Positions 2,559-62,554 of a stretch of 64,000 bases of DNA are shown here, piece by piece (position 1 is the stretch's first letter; every line of letters begins with the position of its first letter). The position numbers were made by a program, and so were the translations under genes. A model generated the notes under the pieces. It searched no databases. It was not told the DNA's origin and saw only the letters and a list, made by a program, of their open reading frames with translations. Source of the stretch: a virus. Lineage: Duplodnaviria; Caudoviricetes. The stretch is taken from the IMG/VR virus record IMGVR_UViG_3300031853_000001, positions 64,001-128,000 of that record. One strand, given 5' to 3'.

Positions 2559-2588
2559 AAATATAGAAAAGAAAAGGAGTTATTGGTT

Positions 2589-3725
2589 ATGTATTTAACT
2601 AAATTTATGAATGAAAATCTCGATTGGCAGACTAAGCTCGTAGCTGCTCCGTATTTTCTGGAAATTCATTCTGATATTATTGAAGGCGTTGAATATTATA
2701 TTTTGAAATATAATATGATTATGTCTGATATGAGCTTGCCTGAGGTTCAAGAAGCTCGTGGTTCCATCTTTCGCAAGAACGAAGATGGCTATTGGATATG
2801 CGTATGCCATCCGTTTGACAAGTTCTTCAACTATGGAGAATCCCAGTCTGCGGTTAATCGCATTGATTGGTCTACTGCTTCTGTTCAGCAGAAGGTGGAT
2901 GGAAGTCTTATCAAATTTTGGTATGGCAATGATGGTTGGGTGGTCTCTACAAATGGAACAATAGATGCTTACAAAGCAGAGTGCGGCGATACCACCTATG
3001 GCGCGTTGGTAGAGCAGGTTATTGACCGTATTCCTAATTTTTTCAAGATGTTAGACCGCGACTATACTTATATGTTTGAACTAACTTCTCCTTTTAATCG
3101 TATTGTTATACATTATGAAGGGGTTAATTTGTGGTATCTTGGTCGACGCAACATTTCAAATCATATTGAAGACAATGAACCCTTGATGATTAGCGGCATA
3201 CTTCATCCCGAAATATACCTCCATCACTCTCTTTCTGAATGTATTGCGGCCGCACACGAAATGGGCGATGATGAAGAGGGATATGTAGTGTGTGATGCGA
3301 ACTTCAACCGTATTAAAATTAAAGGTGATGAGTATTTACGCCTGCATAAAATGCGTGGCAATGGGCCGCTAAATATCACCCAAGTAATAGAAATGTATCA
3401 GAATGATTCTCTTGATGACTTTATCGCCTACTACCCCGAGTTTAAGTCTTTCGTAGATGAAGTTATTGGACAACTGCGACATTTAATTGATATTGCTGAT
3501 ATTGCTTTTTCTGCTATAATGTCACATTCTCCCGCTACTCGTGCGGATTTCGCACAGTATGCTTGCACTTATATCGGACCGTTAAAGTCTTTCTTGTTCG
3601 CACGACTGGATAACAAGGTTGCAAATGCTACCGAATTTTATAAGGAGATGCGCGCGAAGAGTCTTTCCGCGCACCTTCAAACCATTTTAACTCATAAAGA
3701 AATTGGGATTATGGAGGACGATTAA
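2589..3725 (+). CDS. T4 Rnl1-like RNA ligase
   Basis: KFFNYGE, motif I KVDGSL, FEL, EEGYVV, RIKIK. Confidence 0.9.
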   Translation: MYLTKFMNENLDWQTKLVAAPYFLEIHSDIIEGVEYYILKYNMIMSDMSLPEVQEARGSIFRKNEDGYWICVCHPFDKFFNYGESQSAVNRIDWSTASVQQKVDGSLIKFWYGNDGWVVSTNGTIDAYKAECGDTTYGALVEQVIDRIPNFFKMLDRDYTYMFELTSPFNRIVIHYEGVNLWYLGRRNISNHIEDNEPLMISGILHPEIYLHHSLSECIAAAHEMGDDEEGYVVCDANFNRIKIKGDEYLRLHKMRGNGPLNITQVIEMYQNDSLDDFIAYYPEFKSFVDEVIGQLRHLIDIADIAFSAIMSHSPATRADFAQYACTYIGPLKSFLFARLDNKVANATEFYKEMRAKSLSAHLQTILTHKEIGIMEDD

Positions 3726-50060: not shown

Positions 50061-50136
50061 AATTCTGCTATAATAATATTGTAAAAAAGAAAAGCCCTAG
50101 TCCAGGGCTGACCAAATGAAAAGGAGATTTAAAATT

Positions 50137-51756
50137 ATGACTAATTTCAATCAGGTAGTTTCTAATTTTGTTGCTTCTCAGAATTCTTACCCTGTTCGTA
50201 AGAATATTAGCAAGGCTCACGCTTCTTCCTTTATCAATGCGATGAAGCAAGAGGATAACTTCAAGTATACCGAAAATGGTGCGGTAGCCAAGAAGTCTAC
50301 TATGTCCAAGCTATACGACCTATTTGCACTTGGCGGCTCCTATCGTTCTCGCACCGAGAGCGATTGTATCGTTCTTTTTAAGAACGCATATCAGGAGAAC
50401 CCTGCCTATGCTCTAAAGTGCCTATGGTATCTTCGTGATATTCTTGAGGGTCAGGGTGAGCGTCGTTTCTTCCGTGTTTGCTTAAAGTGGCTTGCTACCT
50501 ACGACAAGCAGGCTGTACTACGCAACCTTGATACCATTGCCCGTGATGGTTTCGGCCGCTGGGATGATCTGTTTGTCCTATTTGACACTCCTTGCGAGGA
50601 TGCTGTTATGAAGCTGATTGAAAATCAGCTAGTTAGCGACCTAAAGGCGTATCAGGCCGGTGCCGCAGTATCTCTACTTGGCAAGTGGATTCCTTCCGAG
50701 AACTCCTCTTCTGCCAAGACTAAGCATAATGCTCGTCGCATTATTGCTGCTCTTCACGTATCTCCTCGTGAGTATCGTAAGACTCTATCTGCTCTGCGTG
50801 AGCGTATCCACGTTGTAGAGCGTCTTATGTCCCAGAACCGTTGGGACGAGATTGATTTCTCTCATCTACCTTCTCGTGCTGGCCTGATCTATCGCAAGGC
50901 TTTCGAGCGTCGCGATATGATTCAGCAGAAGTATCGTGAGTTCGCGAAGGATACTTCTACCAAGGTAAATGCTGGTAAGCTATATCCTTACGACGTTGTG
51001 CGTGAGGCACAGAAGGTTATGCACTGTGATTCCTACTGGAATTATGGTTCTCGCGAACCTCGCCTAGACGACACCCAGCGTCTAATGGTTAATAAGTATT
51101 GGGATAACCTACGTAATGTTTTCCCTGCGGGTGAAAACTTTAACGCTATGGTTGTTTGCGATACTTCTAGCTCTATGCTAAATGGAGCAAGCAATACTGC
51201 TTCTCCTATGCAGGTTGCGGTATCTCTGGCAATGTATGCCGCAGAGCGTGCCAACGGTCCTTTCAAGAACCATTATATCAGTTTCAGCCGTCAGGCTCGT
51301 CTGGTAGAGGTTTTTGGTGCGGACTTCTGCGACAAGGTATCTCGTATCATCCGCTCCAATGTGTGCGAGAATACCAATCTTGAAAGTGTTTTCGACCTAG
51401 TGCTAAATACTGCTATGCAGTATCGCCTACCTCGTAACGCTATGCCTAAGACTCTTGTAGTCGTGTCCGATATGGAAGTAGATCGTTCTGCGGGTATTTC
51501 CAGTCATAAGGAAACCTTTATGGAGTCTATGCGTCGTAAGTGGGCTCAGAAGTGCGGCAACCGCTATGAGTTCCCTGACGTAGTGTTCTGGAATGTGTCT
51601 GCTCGCAACGATACTTTCCTAGACGATCCTAAGAGTGGCATTACTTACGTGTCTGGCTGCAGTCCTGTACTGTTTGAGCAGATTCTGTCTGGTAAGACGT
51701 CTATTGACCTTATGCTAGACAAGCTTAACGCTCCTCGCTACAAAGACATCTACTAA
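50137..51756 (+). CDS. DUF2828-family protein (TROVE/Ro60-like helical domain + vWA)
   Basis: TENGA...ST...DLF, LRD...GQGER, GRWDDL, SL..KW.P, MIDAS-like DTSSSM, TNL..VF, SDME, FWNV, VSG.SP; own promoter (50046) and terminator. Confidence 0.85.
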   Translation: MTNFNQVVSNFVASQNSYPVRKNISKAHASSFINAMKQEDNFKYTENGAVAKKSTMSKLYDLFALGGSYRSRTESDCIVLFKNAYQENPAYALKCLWYLRDILEGQGERRFFRVCLKWLATYDKQAVLRNLDTIARDGFGRWDDLFVLFDTPCEDAVMKLIENQLVSDLKAYQAGAAVSLLGKWIPSENSSSAKTKHNARRIIAALHVSPREYRKTLSALRERIHVVERLMSQNRWDEIDFSHLPSRAGLIYRKAFERRDMIQQKYREFAKDTSTKVNAGKLYPYDVVREAQKVMHCDSYWNYGSREPRLDDTQRLMVNKYWDNLRNVFPAGENFNAMVVCDTSSSMLNGASNTASPMQVAVSLAMYAAERANGPFKNHYISFSRQARLVEVFGADFCDKVSRIIRSNVCENTNLESVFDLVLNTAMQYRLPRNAMPKTLVVVSDMEVDRSAGISSHKETFMESMRRKWAQKCGNRYEFPDVVFWNVSARNDTFLDDPKSGITYVSGCSPVLFEQILSGKTSIDLMLDKLNAPRYKDIY

Positions 51757-51772
51757 GGTTAAGTATAAATTT

Positions 51773-51798
51773 GAGATGGAGAAATCCATCTCTTTTTT
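51773..51798 (+). terminator. intrinsic terminator
   Basis: gagatgga-gaaa-tccatctc-tttttt. Confidence 0.85.
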
Positions 51799-51851
51799 AT
51801 TTGACTTATTATAAAAATTTTGATATAATATTTATAGAAAGGATGAGGAAA

Positions 51852-52208
51852 ATGAACTATTACATTTATTTGGATGATGTGCGCGAAGATGATACTTGGT
51901 TTCGACAGCATTTGAATACCGAGCATTGGATTCCTTGTGTTGTTCGTTCTTATGAGGAAGTAATTCATATTCTTGACCATATGCAAGATTATATGGACAA
52001 GGATGAAGTGCTTATTCTCGACCTTGATCACGACCTTGGCGAAACTGAAGATGGTTACAATGAACTCGCGCACACAGGATATGATGTTTGTAAGTGGATG
52101 ATAGAAAATCATTTCCCTGCCTGCTATTTTCACATTCATAGCATGAACGCTAGTGGTTCTGCGAATATGCGACAACTTCTTACTCACTATGGCTATAAGG
52201 AGATTTAA
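51852..52208 (+). CDS. cyclic-phosphate-processing receiver-domain protein
   Basis: YLDDVR, LDLDHDLG, TGYDV.KW, IHSMN..G..NM. Confidence 0.8.
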   Translation: MNYYIYLDDVREDDTWFRQHLNTEHWIPCVVRSYEEVIHILDHMQDYMDKDEVLILDLDHDLGETEDGYNELAHTGYDVCKWMIENHFPACYFHIHSMNASGSANMRQLLTHYGYKEI

Positions 52209-52667
52209 TATGCTTTTAGATGAAAATAATGATAAAGAAAAGCTTTATAAAATTATTGATTTTCTAATAGAACAAATTAAAAATCTGCAAAGAACTAATT
52301 CTGAAATAAATGAACTTTTGAAAGAATCAATTTTTAGAAAATAATTTCTTGACTTTCTCCAAAAATTCTGATATAATTATTATAGTAAAAGGAAAGGAGA
52401 ATAACATAGTGGAAAAGTACAGACCTATTTATAGAGATATTCACGATTGGGCAATTTTGGACGAACGAACTATTCATGATTTTTCTGAAAACGAAACTCC
52501 TATTCACGTGGTAGAAGTTCTTATTGGAACTCTTCATTATGAGCATATAGATTTTAATCAGCATTATACTGAACATCGCACTCCTATTATTCGTTGGCTA
52601 ACTCGTAATGAATATGATTATCTTTGCGCGAATGAAGGCACCGTAATTTGGTAAGAAAGGATTAAAT

Positions 52668-53318
52668 ATGCGTAAGTACGAAAAAATTGAAACTCTATTT
52701 GCCCGCGATATGGAAGGCACTAAAAAGCTAATGCCGGGTATTTTTCGTGACCCGACTATTGAGTTTCTTCAGTATTGTGATTGGGTATGGACTGAGAAGA
52801 TAGACGGCACTAATATCCGCGTGTATTGGGATGGCCATAAGGTTACTTTTAGTGGCCGTACCGATAACGCAGTTATTCCCGCAGAACTTATCACTCGTCT
52901 AAATGAACTTTTTAGCGGTGAGACTAATGCTCAAATTTTTGAGCAGGCTTTTGGCGATAAGGAAGTTATTCTATTCGGTGAGGGCTATGGTCGTAAAATT
53001 CAGAAGGGCGGTGGCAAGTATATTGCCGATGGCGTTGATTTTATTCTATTTGACGTTCTAATTGGTGAGAATTATCAAGAACGTGAATGGGTTGAAAGCA
53101 CCGCCAAGATGTTTGGTATTAAGGTCGTCCCAATTGTGGGTGGCGGTTCGCTTGAAGACGCTGTAAATTATGTTAAGAAGCACCCTAATTCGATAATTGC
53201 GGAAGATGTACGAGAAATGGAAGGTATTGTATGTAGACCCGCTGTTGAGCTACGTGACCGTCGTGGTAATCGTATTATTGTAAAAATTAAGTGGGAAGAT
53301 ATAAAGGAGCTTATTTAA
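52668..53318 (+). CDS. Rnl2-like RNA ligase
   Basis: motif I EKIDGTN, LFGEGYG, FDV, EGIV, KIK. Confidence 0.85.
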   Translation: MRKYEKIETLFARDMEGTKKLMPGIFRDPTIEFLQYCDWVWTEKIDGTNIRVYWDGHKVTFSGRTDNAVIPAELITRLNELFSGETNAQIFEQAFGDKEVILFGEGYGRKIQKGGGKYIADGVDFILFDVLIGENYQEREWVESTAKMFGIKVVPIVGGGSLEDAVNYVKKHPNSIIAEDVREMEGIVCRPAVELRDRRGNRIIVKIKWEDIKELI

Positions 53319-53663: not shown

Positions 53664-54640
53664 CTCAGCGCAAAAGGAGAGCAAGCTGTTACTCCGAGTG
53701 AACTTATCGGCGCTATATAAATAGGAAAAACCAATTAAATACAGTATTTTAAATGAAGTAATAACTGCCATAGAAGTCATGACCTATGATAGAAGACACT
53801 TCATTTAAAGCAACCGGTTGATTTGCGCAATTAAGTCGTTAGAAGCGACTAGAGGGAGAGACCCTGACTAATAAGCAAGTCCATTCTATGAAATGGTAAT
53901 GTCGAAAACCAATTAGTGTAAAGTAGCATACCTTACCAATAATAAGGAGAATCAGCGTAGCGAACTGAATTGGCGTACTGGAATTTGTTGTCCAGAGTAG
54001 GCATAAATCGAGCAGCAATGCGGTAATACCCGTGCACAGGTAGCTAAATTACCCTGGCTCACCAATTATTTTAGAAGATAAGACTTGAGCTTATCTCTGG
54101 CTATGAAGCGAGTGCCGTGCCGCAGATGCGGTGCTTAGTGGAGCCTATGTGGGTTTAGCGTGTCAACCACAATGCGGATAGGTATTAACCGAAAGAAAAC
54201 ACGCTTTAATGGCGCTTTATCCCAAGCCTTTTCGCGGCGGCGCTATAAGTACCAAAAGGTATTATTTAATACTGAGCGTGAAACTAAGAGGGAACTGAAG
54301 GCTGTGCCAAGGTGAAAGGCTAACAGTCCGAGTGATGACCGTTGAAGCCATTCGGTGCATAGTGGTGCCGTTAAAGCGATGGATGCATACATCGTCCACT
54401 TCATTTAATGACTTGATGCTTATCAAGCTAGAACTATCGAGGACGTGTGCGGTGGGAATGTTTGAGATTAGATGTAGATAGTTTAAGTATAGACTTGCGG
54501 TGCAAGCCTAATCAACTGGCGTTCCGCGGCCAGAATACTTTGCGGGCTTTATTGATTCGGGAGGAAGTGTCCGTAGATGAACTTCTCGGAGTAATCGCCA
54601 TAATCGAATCAGCCGTGCGGCTGGCATAATGCCGCAATAT
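53664..54640 (+). ncRNA. about 1-kb structured non-coding region with embedded tRNA-like domains
   Basis: no credible ORF; many hairpins; cloverleaf-like 53907-53975 (loop ccaataa) and ACCA-ending unit 54010-54064. Confidence 0.55.
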
Positions 54641-59117: not shown

Positions 59118-59693
59118 ATACTCCATTTAATAAAATGGTTGAACCAAGTGAAGAAGAGTTAACCACTCTGCTTGGGCTATCTAAATAACAGCCATACGAT
59201 TTAGCGGGATACTACTAAATCGCGGCCACGAAATCAGTAATGATTAGTGATAAGGAGAAACTCTTAATGTTAAGGATAGGCGCTTGGTTATTCGCTAACA
59301 AAAACTTGGCTCCTTGCGGCGTCGTAATAGAAAGCAGATTGAGCAGATTTGCCGAACCCAGAAAAGACTTTAAGGTGGCAGTTAAAGGGACTCTGGGAAA
59401 GCCATAAGACGTTTGGTGTCGTTGAAACCTAGAAATAGGATATAAGCAAGGTTCACAGATAAAGTAGCCTAAAACGACAATGATTCTAATAAGTAATTTA
59501 ATTAGAATAATGTGCTGAATGGTTTAGGTGAAATTTGGGAGTAATCAGTCTCCCCGTTGCTAGCCAAAAGGCAGGATGAAGAAGTTAAAGGGTCGCTACC
59601 TTTGGCTCAGCCTTCATCTTCAACGTGGTTGAATATGTTAGAAGGATAATACAAGTACGGCGAAGGTCGCAACGGTTTTATTAAATGGGGTAT
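59118..59693 (+). ncRNA. 576-nt large structured RNA, ROOL-like
   Basis: 23-bp terminal stem atactccatttaataaaatggtt/aacggttttattaaatggggtat; size and tRNA-cluster context fit ROOL; family not verified. Confidence 0.6.
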
Positions 59694-61243: not shown

Positions 61244-61464
61244 AAGATAAGTTCACTGGGCTCTTCTAAAGTCCAGTACCAAAGCCGAATGTCACATAAA
61301 GTTAACGACGGTGCGGTATGAAAAGACCACGCTGTAGTGGCACGGGCAGAGCTAATCCGGCAAGGAAAGCGGCGGTTAAAGTGAAATCGCGACGCGGAAA
61401 GAGAAAGAATAACAACCAGTGATGGGTCGAAAGACGTCTTATCAGTTTTCTCGGTCACTTTTAT

Positions 61465-61538
61465 AGTCCGTTAGTTTAACAGTAAAATATAACCCTGTCA
61501 CGGTTAAGTTACGAGGGCAGCACTCGTACGGACTGCCA
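61465..61538 (+). tRNA. tRNA-Asp(GTC)
   Basis: taacc-ctgtcac-ggtta, G73, CCA; atypical T loop ggcagca. Confidence 0.85.
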
Positions 61539-61657
61539 TAGACTCAAACAGCAATATTTTACTTGCATGTGGGGCCGGAAGTATTGGTTTAACTCCAGTT
61601 CTCTCCACCACATGGAGAGATAGTGTAACGATAGCACGCCGTATAGTATGAGTCTAG
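61539..61657 (+). ncRNA. ACAGCAA-scaffold RNA #5 with circularly permuted tRNA (GTG, His-like)
   Basis: tagactc-aaACAGCAA...gagtcta-g enclosing gc-atgtggg-gccgg, T arm, tctctcc-ACCA, linker, ggagaga, D arm, ccg. Confidence 0.82.
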
Positions 61658-61662
61658 TATAT

Positions 61663-62215
61663 CGGGTTGTAGCGCAGTTTGGTAGCGCGCCTCGCTTGGG
61701 AAAAGCGATTTGTGCTTAATTATTATGTTAGACATTACTCAACAAAAAGGAACGATTACAGAATTACGATGTATTTTAGATTTAACTAATTTGGGAATAC
61801 GATGTTTAGTTCCTGTAGATGAAAGTTCTAAATATGATGTAGTAGCAGATTTAAATGGTACTTTTATTAGAATTCAATGTAAAACAGCTTGTTGGGCTAA
61901 AGATACCGTTCAAGAAAAAGTAGCCTTTGAAATAGATACTTGTCGAAGTACAACAAATACTAAAACTACTACTCATTATAAGTATTCTGCTAATGAAATT
62001 GATTATTTTTATACATGGTTTGAAGGACAAGGTTACTTAGTCTCCATTAAAGAAGCAAAAGGTTTAACTTTTAGATGGCGATATGAATATCCTTCTACCA
62101 ATCAAAAACAAGGTATTCATATCGCAGAATTATATAAGACTGAGGAGGTTTTAAAAGCACTCTAAAATTTTCCTGGACGAGGAGGCCGCAGGTTCAAATC
62201 CTGCCTGCCCGACCA
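61663..62215 (+). tRNA. tRNA-Pro(TGG) split by an ORF-bearing insert (about 61699-62174)
   Basis: 5' half cgggttg..cctcg-cttg; 3' half gga-cgagg..ctgcccg-ACCA; rejoined loop cttggga. Confidence 0.88.
61725..62165 (+). CDS. PD-(D/E)XK endonuclease inside the tRNA-Pro insert (I-Ssp6803I-like family)
   Basis: KGTITE, P....YDVV.D..G.FIRIQCKT, Y...EIDYF. Confidence 0.85.
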   Translation: MLDITQQKGTITELRCILDLTNLGIRCLVPVDESSKYDVVADLNGTFIRIQCKTACWAKDTVQEKVAFEIDTCRSTTNTKTTTHYKYSANEIDYFYTWFEGQGYLVSIKEAKGLTFRWRYEYPSTNQKQGIHIAELYKTEEVLKAL

Positions 62216-62326
62216 TAATCAACTGGGTTTGAAGGTTATCCCATTTGAAAAACCTTCCCCTTTCTTTCTTGACTTTTTCTAAAAATTTTGATATAATAAA
62301 TATATCAAAGGAAAGGAAATAAAAAG

Positions 62327-62554
62327 ATGGATAAGAAAGAACTTTCTACTAATGCGGCAAAAGCAGAATTTGTAAAGTCTATTCATAATTGGCTTATGCG
62401 AACTTTAGAGCAAAACAATAAATCTGAATATAAAGATTGTTTTACTGTTGAAGGTTCTAGTATTATGTGCCAACTGCCGCAAGACTACTTTAATTCATGT
62501 AGTATTCCAGCGAACACTAAGATTGAAATGAAGTTTATTTCTAAGAAATCATAA
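62327..62554 (+). CDS. hypothetical protein
   Basis: promoter 62269-62297, SD gaaagga. Confidence 0.6.
   Translation: MDKKELSTNAAKAEFVKSIHNWLMRTLEQNNKSEYKDCFTVEGSSIMCQLPQDYFNSCSIPANTKIEMKFISKKS

Follow-up and report, generated by a model that had tools for sequence, protein, structure and literature searches.

A homing endonuclease gene without a ribozyme splits the anticodon loop of a phage tRNA-Pro gene

The tRNA-Pro(UGG) gene of a phage from the gut of ruminants is interrupted in its anticodon loop, between tRNA nucleotides 36 and 37, by a 476-nt insert that consists almost wholly of a homing endonuclease gene and contains no ribozyme. By sequence comparison, the insert belongs to a large family of phage elements that are actively mobile. 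The prevailing view is that self-splicing group I ribozymes are the sole means by which tRNA introns are removed in bacteria and phages, and that splicing of tRNAs by proteins is confined to archaea and eukaryotes. Either proteins excise the insert and rejoin the tRNA-Pro, a process not known in bacteria and phages, or a selfish gene has silenced the tRNA.

Results

Anatomy and register of the split tRNA-Pro gene

The window analysed here, 64,000 nt in length, comprises bases 64001–128000 of a 180,932-bp IMG/VR virus record that is rated complete. The phage has a G+C content of 34% and about 26 tRNA genes, and the sequencing runs that contain the stretch come from cattle and sheep gut. A tRNA-Pro(UGG) gene with the 476-nt insert in its anticodon loop was located at 61663–62215 using ARAGORN with introns allowed (-i), and the joined halves form a 77-nt cloverleaf with an encoded CCA (Table 1). 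The split gene is the sole tRNA-Pro gene in the phage genome, in which CCA is the commonest proline codon (43%). A first-pass annotation, made from the sequence letters, had described the two tRNA halves, the insert, its ORF and the pairing between its ends, and was correct in every detail of this observation.

From the sequence of the window alone, splicing in the 35/36, 36/37 and 37/38 registers would give an identical product, as the first-pass annotation had also recognized. Wherever an identical or nearly identical intronless allele exists, which is so in several cases, 36/37 is the only register that works. Examples are the tRNA-Thr and tRNA-Ile of locus L004 and their intronless counterparts in L005 and L006, whose exon bodies are identical over 69/69 and 70/70 nt with the anticodon loop left out. 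Within the Pro family, L004 (3' end CCTAGA) rules out 35/36, and L058 rules out 37/38. In the 36/37 register, the non-coding part of the insert amounts to 25 nt ahead of the ATG and 10 nt past the stop codon. The exon–exon joint of a spliced tRNA-Pro would read CTCGCTTGG/GACGAGG, with the slash marking the joint, and the junction k-mer of the joined tRNA with its phage-specific exon flanks is GCGCGCCTCGCTTGGGACGAGGAGGCCGCAGG.

Table 1. Features of the split tRNA-Pro gene and candidate processing genes (positions in the window)
Feature	Positions	Strand	Evidence
5' exon, tRNA-Pro(UGG) nt 1–36, ending with the anticodon UGG	61663..61699	+	ARAGORN -i; 36/37 register from relatives; cloverleaf pairs covary in 16 family members
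Insert (intron-like element), 476 nt, between tRNA nt 36 and 37	61700..62175	+	No Rfam group I/II match at E ≤ 10; 35 nt non-coding
3' exon, tRNA-Pro nt 37–76 with encoded CCA	62176..62215	+	ARAGORN -i; joined cloverleaf; covariation
P1 5' strand: U33, anticodon U34-G35-G36 and insert nt 1–5; contains the 5' junction	61696..61704	+	Pairs with 62168–62176, probabilities 0.45–0.94; double changes in the family
P1 3' strand: insert nt -8 to -1, followed by G37; the anticodon's partners are nt -3 to -1 (CUG)	62168..62176	+	Pairing, covariation, fold
P2 5' strand (GTGCTT), closing the ORF loop	61712..61717	+	Pair probability 0.77–0.92; 5/5 main-helix pairs with compensatory changes in 16 sequences
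P2 3' strand (AAGCAC), within the last ORF codons	62155..62160	+	Family alignment, covariation, fold
Homing endonuclease gene, 146 aa, PD-(D/E)XK, I-Ssp6803I family	61725..62165	+	Pfam PF11645, PDB 2OST, AF2 fold
T4 Rnl1-like RNA ligase gene, candidate sealing enzyme with a putative link to the insert	2583..3725	+	PF09511, E = 6.3e-16
Predicted RNA-repair cluster encoding a PF09414 RNA ligase, cREC (cyclic-phosphate-processing receiver domain) and a DUF2828/VWA protein; candidates for healing and sealing, with a putative link to the insert	50116..53318	+	Function as predicted in PMC7824862

The endonuclease ORF

The 146-aa ORF matches the Pfam family PDDEXK_5 (PF11645; E = 2.6e-20, 73 bits against a cut-off of 26) and, by sequence, the homing endonuclease I-Ssp6803I (PDB 2OST; E = 2.7e-6). 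The AF2 model of the protein (pLDDT 94.2) has 2OST as its best structural match in the PDB (TM 0.76, E = 9e-11), with Hjc Holliday-junction resolvases next, and the catalytic residues E13, D38, Q51 and K53 are invariant across 50 homologues. Sequence, catalytic residues and fold thus bear out the earlier assignment of this nuclease to the I-Ssp6803I family. I-Ssp6803I itself leaves 3-nt 3' overhangs when it cuts DNA.

The ORFs of the family are under purifying selection, as judged from their substitution rates (dN/dS 0.10–0.32 at dS 0.46–1.25). They diverge to 31–41% identity, with dS near saturation, and every one examined is intact. In-frame stops occur in 8 relatives; all are TAG, and the ORFs terminate at TAA at the usual length, which indicates TAG recoding and not decay.

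A mobile family of inserts at 36/37

The 146-aa protein has 357 close homologues, and the contigs that encode them carry tRNA arrays with one to three such ORFs, each within a tRNA gene. In a profile scan of IMG/VR, the ORF lies inside a tRNA anticodon loop in 65 of 80 loci at default ARAGORN thresholds and in about 75 of the 80 at relaxed thresholds, which add most of the other 15. The inserts are either 450–505 nt long, with an ORF of 137–155 aa, or 650–850 nt long, with an ORF of 205–262 aa. The ORF always fills the insert, and longer inserts have longer ORFs only. In the corrected register, the host tRNAs include Pro, Thr, Asn, Lys, Asp, Val, Gly, Ile, Arg, Gln and Glu, and a spare tRNA of the same anticodon is present in the locus for only 2 of 69 inserts.

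Syntenic relatives of the phage were retrieved via the neighbouring 179-aa gene. Six of them (L112, L113, L114, L141, L144 and L158) have an intronless tRNA-Pro at the matching place, and among the syntenic relatives the insert is carried only by the analysed window and L115. A blastn search of GenBank phages with 61400–62500 gave no match, and an exact-pattern search of IMG/VR for the intronless anticodon arm recovered nine unrelated tRNA-Pro genes and no close intronless allele.

A member of the family is also present in a cultured phage, the Enterococcus phage EFP01 (Schiekvirus, NC_047796), where a 463-nt insert splits tRNA-Asn(GUU) at 36/37. By eye, its exons are identical over 71/71 nt to the annotated tRNA-Asn of phage EFDG1 in the printed sequences, and exactly this insert is absent in 29 Schiekvirus relatives; if spliced, the joint would read CTGTT/AACC. 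The split tRNA of EFP01 is unannotated and its ORF is labelled 'hypothetical protein'. Whether spliced or not, the split tRNA genes of the family are missed by standard annotation. The mobility proposed in the first-pass annotation is borne out by such presence and absence at one site in otherwise matching tRNA genes. An identical ORF was also found in two tRNA-Pro alleles with different stems (L013 and L014), which points to recent homing.

The insert ends and the anticodon form an RNA rod

The pairings proposed earlier for the insert ends, GGAAAA with TTTTCC and GTGCTT (61712–17) with AAGCAC (62155–60), are both present. The minimum-energy fold of the whole 553-nt precursor (ViennaRNA) recovers both helices of the rod, P1 and P2, unaided. 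The anticodon stem runs on into P1, so that the anticodon loop is absorbed into the helix; the 5' junction lies three pairs into P1, and the proximal end of P1 holds the 3' junction on the opposite strand. Since the anticodon is paired with the last three nucleotides of the insert, and the two insert ends with one another, the two junctions are on opposite strands, 3 bp apart. In most subfamilies, a conserved 2x2 internal loop follows seven pairs past the 5' junction, and P2 comes after it. The Pro subfamily of the window has a shorter P1 (to i5:-8, where i counts from the 5' end of the insert and negative numbers from its 3' end), a larger internal loop (G-A/C-GAUUU opposite UCUAA-G/A-A) and a 6-bp P2.

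This geometry is shared by about 63–69 of 76 distinct inserts; in 63 of the 76 the longest run of pairs follows the diagonal 32:38, 33:37, 34:-1, 35:-2, 36:-3, i1:-4 and onward. Across the 76, positions 34:-1 to i3:-6 are paired in 92–97%, and G-U pairs outnumber A-C mismatches by 104 to 11, an excess that indicates selection on the sense RNA rather than on DNA. The last three nucleotides of the insert track the anticodon, being CUG or CUA for UGG, ACA for UGU, AUC for GAU and AGC for GUU. In 16 precursors of the Pro family, 97.3% of cells are paired and 29 of 40 pairs have double changes. Their covariation score of 0.558 compares with 0.21 for shuffles (0 of 500 reached it) and ≤0.12 for slid controls, and the covariation involves all tRNA stems as well as P1 and P2. 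Taken together, the covariation and the G-U excess show that the RNA structure is under selection.

On the exon side, U33, the anticodon UGG, G37 and the C32-A38 mismatch are retained, and changes occur on the insert side only, such as G to A at -1; the stems 5–10 nt away from the anticodon loop vary freely. Two other structures were considered. A bulge-helix-bulge drawing is impossible given the observed pairing, which is continuous from 33:37 to i5:-8 with the junctions 3 bp apart. A terminator-like hairpin at 61692–61708 would compete with P1; its pairing is lost in most relatives, and it is probably due to chance.

Absence of a ribozyme

A permissive Rfam scan (E ≤ 10) of 61300–62500 gave no match to group I introns, group II introns or small ribozymes, and 15 related loci gave no group I or group II match at E ≤ 0.01. 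As a positive control, the same kind of scan with the full model identified the 336-nt tRNA-Leu(UAA) intron of locus L035 as Intron_gpI (24.5 bits, E = 1e-3), while the PDDEXK_5 insert in the neighbouring tRNA-Pro of that locus gave no ribozyme match. The covariance search thus agrees with the first-pass annotation, which had seen no group I core in the insert.

The junctions also lack the features of group I introns. The 5' exon ends with G36 and not with U, and in other host tRNAs the anticodon determines whether this exon ends with U, C or G. The last nucleotide of the insert is G here and A in L004–L006, with no constant omega-G, and the exon end pairs with the 3' end of the insert and not with its 5' end. 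About 200 nt or more of non-coding sequence would be needed for a group I intron; the relatives have 16–46 nt before and 3–19 nt after the ORF, and the 35 nt of the present insert are equally few.

Self-splicing by a ribozyme that escaped these scans, be it a group I core that overlaps the ORF or a small ribozyme of a new kind built from P1, P2 and the internal loop between them, would account for the fixed position of the internal loop (A-C/U opposite C-A in most subfamilies, 7 bp past the 5' junction) and for the conservation of GAGGAGGT, close to the 3' end of the ORF, at the nucleotide level. The Rfam group I model is moreover weak on bacterial tRNA introns (Williams 2020, bioRxiv 10.1101/2020.01.27.920355). 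However, the scan did detect the tRNA-Leu intron of L035, and the divergence of the ORFs, with dS near saturation, means that a conserved 200-nt core would hardly fit. Nor does the plain helix that holds both junctions offer a loop that could form the active site of a small ribozyme. Given these observations and the identity of the exon and insert ends, we consider self-splicing very improbable.

The mini-inserts belong to a different class

The phage also has mini-inserts of 44 and 47 nt, in tRNA-Glu and tRNA-Leu, at 35/36. Each has the shape of an acceptor/T-arm minihelix with a terminal ACCA. The short tRNA inserts of relatives, about 50 distinct ones, are likewise minihelices, mostly ending in ACCA, with diagonal runs of 0–6 pairs. 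No ORF-less derivative of the rod type was found among these roughly 50. The first-pass annotation had proposed that the ORF-bearing insert is of the same class as the mini-inserts, with a register compatible with the same 35/36 site. Neither part of this proposal is supported: the relatives restrict the ORF-bearing family to 36/37, and its continuous helix differs in shape from a minihelix.

The mini-inserts, with their acceptor-like helices, nevertheless raise the possibility that the ORF-bearing insert mimics the top half of a tRNA and is removed by RNase P and the tRNA 3'-end enzymes, followed by a ligase. In the 35/36 register, GGAAAA/TTTTCC and one further nucleotide can indeed be drawn as an acceptor-like helix. 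That register is, however, excluded in relatives, for example by the 3' end CCTAGA, and the insert has neither a T-arm nor an ACCA end. The would-be 5' leader (nt 34–36) is base-paired to the 3' tail, an arrangement that disfavours RNase P, and an RNase Z-type cut one nucleotide past the helix would give the wrong junction. Together with the different geometry of the short inserts (0–6-pair diagonal runs, ACCA ends), these points make removal by RNase P and 3'-end enzymes very improbable.

Protein-dependent splicing or silencing of the tRNA

Our preferred reading, held tentatively and short of an even chance, is that the insert is a protein-dependent intron: a protein endonuclease would cut both strands of the rod, and an RNA ligase would then close the nick and so restore a functional tRNA-Pro. 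P1 would be the substrate of the endonuclease, and cuts after G36 and after insert nt -1 would release the insert and leave the anticodon as a 3-nt 3' overhang. The nicked tRNA (36/37) would hold itself together, its halves being kept in place by the acceptor, D and T arms, and would be a good substrate for a ligase that seals anticodon loops. Sealing might be performed by the phage Rnl1-like ligase or by the cREC-ligase cluster, or alternatively by host RtcB. The cuts might be made by the enzyme that the insert encodes, by a double-strand RNase of the host or by some other protein of the phage. The DUF2828/VWA–cREC–PF09414 ligase cluster stands at the head of the phage tRNA region, and clusters of this composition are predicted to repair RNA (PMC7824862).

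The phage genome has no gene for EndA (PF01974), RtcB or RNase III. No ligase or healing gene is common to 29 insert-bearing phage records, in which Rnl1 occurs in 4, PF09414 above the cut-off in 16, RtcB in 1 and cREC in 12, so that a wandering element must rely on its own protein or on host enzymes. A 3-nt stagger in double-stranded RNA is not the product of any bacterial or phage enzyme known to us. The stagger of RNase III is 2 nt; it is a weak candidate, given that the rod is long enough for it but the cut would result in an anticodon loop of 6 or 8 nt.

Several observations hint at splicing. The exon-side nucleotides of the loop remain tRNA-like while nearby stems vary, and their partners on the insert side alone change. 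The interrupted gene is the sole tRNA-Pro, it reads the top proline codon, and spare copies are rare throughout the family (2/69). The absence of decayed ORFs and of ORF-less rod copies hints in addition that the ORF is needed. In contigs of four metatranscriptome runs (contigs only), no joint from spliced RNA of the analysed phage was seen. One 476-nt 'skip' in the RNA contigs comes from a ~90% similar intronless tRNA-Pro with a different upstream flank and so carries no information on splicing of the present insert, and an exact-match RNA-library contig across the 5' junction represents either precursor RNA or DNA.

The insert may equally be read as a selfish, unspliced homing endonuclease gene whose arrival inactivated a tRNA gene that the phage can do without, with the rod and the tRNA body serving the element; we regard this as a serious possibility, though also one that falls short of probable. 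The split tRNA would fold and, with its ends trimmed by the 3' processing enzymes and RNase P, would clamp both ends of the endonuclease mRNA, much as engineered 'tRNA scaffolds' stabilize RNAs placed in an extended anticodon stem. Such a scaffold role likewise predicts the covariation of the cloverleaf and the continuous P1. It does not, however, require a tRNA-like anticodon loop, and yet U33, UGG, G37 and C32-A38 are kept on the exon side. Repeated recent invasion of working alleles, as in L013 and L014, could explain both the intact exons and the unchanged loop: if homing is recent and frequent, intact exons require no selection on the split gene.

Phage tRNAs are accessory, and EFP01 is viable in culture with a split tRNA-Asn; against this, the split gene is nearly always the only copy of its anticodon in the locus, and here in the whole genome. 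The lack of a common set of splicing enzymes across the 29 insert-bearing records, the failure to find spliced RNA in the RNA contigs, a protein fold that matches DNA enzymes only, and not EndA, and the free-standing homologues that adjoin tRNA genes in Kuttervirus phages all accord with an unspliced selfish gene. The same phages, however, tolerate many ORF-less mini-inserts, which cannot be selfish endonuclease genes, and this suggests that some route for joining tRNAs exists in these systems.

A more specific form of protein-dependent splicing would make the insert an autonomous protein-only intron, whose own PD-(D/E)XK enzyme also cuts the P1 RNA before an RNA ligase reseals the tRNA. The tRNA-side half of P1 repeats the putative DNA half-site of the enzyme, and the 3-bp stagger is two-fold symmetric about the 35:-2 pair, a symmetry that fits the element's own dimer- or tetramer-forming nuclease. 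The structural matches of the AF2 model include only DNA enzymes (I-Ssp6803I and the Hjc resolvases) and no EndA-like fold; EndA has been related to the PD-(D/E)XK fold (PMC3424549). On balance, we judge this autonomous form to be unlikely. If the enzyme does cut P1, the insert would be a bacterial-virus counterpart of archaeal tRNA splicing and a living model of a DNA nuclease becoming an RNA-splicing endonuclease.

Discussion

Gut and rumen phages hold hundreds of members of the family described here, and a cultured Enterococcus phage holds at least one. The family has kept its homing endonuclease, has lost or never had a ribozyme, and has a conserved helix that fixes the junctions at a 3-bp stagger next to the anticodon. 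If the inserts are spliced, they would represent a new splicing route in bacterial systems with a novel double-strand RNA nuclease, and the RNA-repair ligases of phages would have a role beyond counter-defence. If they are not spliced, they would show clearly how a selfish gene can disable the tRNAs of phages and exploit the tRNA shape to the benefit of its own transcript, and phage tRNA counts from standard annotation would be misleading in another way. EFP01 and its host Enterococcus faecium provide a culturable pair in which the splicing question is testable. Full-text literature searches found no published description of ORF-only inserts at 36/37, and the catalogue of group I tRNA introns requires a ribozyme match by design (bioRxiv 10.1101/2020.01.27.920355).

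The closest known relative by endonuclease family is the group I intron in the tRNA-fMet gene of Synechocystis PCC 6803, which encodes I-Ssp6803I. The two elements share the nuclease family, mobility, an anticodon-loop site and an ORF looped out of paired flanks. The Synechocystis intron has 655 nt for a 150-aa ORF (PMC1995217), of which ~200 nt are ribozyme, and is located at 33/34 (fMet.2Ug, Williams 2020, bioRxiv 10.1101/2020.01.27.920355), whereas the phage insert has 476 nt for 146 aa, only 35 non-coding nucleotides, and lies at 36/37. It also differs in having no group I core, no U-1 and no constant omega-G, and in the pairing of its 3' end with the anticodon.

The first-pass annotation had likened the insert to the ORF-bearing introns of archaea. 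This analogy is a loose one. Archaeal bulge-helix-bulge introns, some of which contain homing endonuclease genes, are spliced by EndA and RtcB; they resemble the phage insert in being ribozyme-free and ORF-bearing, with junctions set by a helix in the anticodon region, and their splicing is protein-dependent, as that of the phage insert would be. The archaeal junctions, however, lie in 3-nt bulges 4 bp apart, while those of the phage are in a continuous helix 3 bp apart. The phage has neither EndA nor RtcB, and its ORF is of the PD-(D/E)XK and not of the LAGLIDADG type. Its host is probably bacterial, since a cultured Enterococcus phage has a member of the family and the window contains ROOL and drum RNAs; we know of no EndA in bacteria.

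Among phages, Lak megaphages have short tRNA introns termed 'enigmatic' (Devoto et al. 2019, PMC6784885); these, like the mini-inserts of the present phage, are also non-group-I inserts in tRNA anticodon loops whose removal is unexplained. Both kinds are ORF-less and tRNA-shaped and end in ACCA, in contrast to the ORF-bearing, plain rod at 36/37. Finally, SegB of T4 and the PDDEXK_5 gene beside the tRNA-Asn of Kuttervirus PM10 are likewise selfish nuclease genes among phage tRNA genes, which they probably target. Those genes are free-standing, located between genes and splitting nothing, whereas the phage insert sits within the anticodon loop, with a conserved helix across both of its junctions.

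Sequence features of the insert in tRNA-Pro

A strong Shine-Dalgarno-like word, GAGGAGGT, lies in the final codons of the endonuclease ORF. Nearly all inserts of the Pro family keep its nucleotide sequence, as judged from all 16 rows of their alignment, although no ORF follows it within the insert. A terminator-like hairpin (TCGCTT/AAGCGA, then a T-run) crosses the 5' junction; its pairing competes with the anticodon stem and with P1, the helix formed by the anticodon and the insert ends. The hairpin is retained in the related phage locus L019 and is not found in most relatives.

In eight related loci (L039, L045, L052, L054, L057, L064, L088 and L099) the endonuclease ORFs, at about 1501-1930, contain in-frame stops, every one of which is TAG, often at conserved Gln positions, while the ORFs themselves end in TAA. 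TAG is probably decoded as an amino acid in these phages.

Other interrupted tRNA genes and the surrounding tRNA region

Classical-looking group I introns also occur in the tRNA-Leu genes of the same phage group (L002, L124, L131 and L035), and ribozyme-bearing and ribozyme-less tRNA inserts thus share one array. These group I-like introns measure 198-336 nt when they carry no ORF; those that hold an HNH or some other ORF measure about 680-730 nt. The two short 'introns' reported by ARAGORN themselves resemble tRNAs, complete or in half, nested within the anticodon loop of a second tRNA.

Near the split tRNA-Pro, Rfam called a tRNA-Asp that ARAGORN missed. Its T-arm reads CGAGGGCAGCACUCG and lacks the usual UUC; relatives carry a normal tRNA-Asp at the same place.

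A predicted RNA-repair cluster, which includes a gene for a cyclic-phosphate-processing receiver domain (cREC) protein, is positioned directly upstream of a tRNA-Met gene, and cREC genes are found within the tRNA arrays of L004-L006 too. It could be imagined that the ROOL and drum RNAs of the tRNA region have a part in tRNA handling; ROOL also adjoins a split tRNA in the related locus L042.

Positions of features in the window and in related loci
Feature	Source	Position	Remark
GAGGAGGT	window	62120-62135	
Terminator-like hairpin	window	61692-61708	
tRNA-Asp, anticodon GUC	window	61465-61535	Rfam, 45.8 bits
DUF2828/DUF7788/VWA protein, cREC protein, PF09414 RNA ligase	window	50116-53318	
ROOL RNA, full-length	window	59120-59688	315 bits
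drum RNA	window	54098-54209	
tRNA-Leu with group I-like intron	L002	3969-4739	
tRNA-Leu with group I-like intron	L035	757-1173	
tRNA-Leu(taa)	L124, L131		726-nt inserts
tRNA with ARAGORN 'intron'	L017	4312-4467	'intron' of 81 nt
tRNA with ARAGORN 'intron'	L009	642-778	'intron' of 61 nt
Split tRNA-Asn	L186, Enterococcus phage EFP01, NC_047796	about 105242-105777	
RtcB gene	EFP01	140344-141453	
PDDEXK_5 homologue	L188, Salmonella phage PM10, NC_031128	102249-102740	29% identity

Homologues in cultured phages

The split tRNA-Asn of EFP01 has no GenBank annotation, and the ORF that it encloses, HOR47_gp109, is labelled 'hypothetical protein'; the same phage also carries an RtcB gene. In PM10 the PDDEXK_5 homologue stands free between tRNA-Asn and tRNA-Tyr, with no tRNA interrupted, and appears to show the same endonuclease family in its free-standing form, as carried by cultured Kuttervirus phages.
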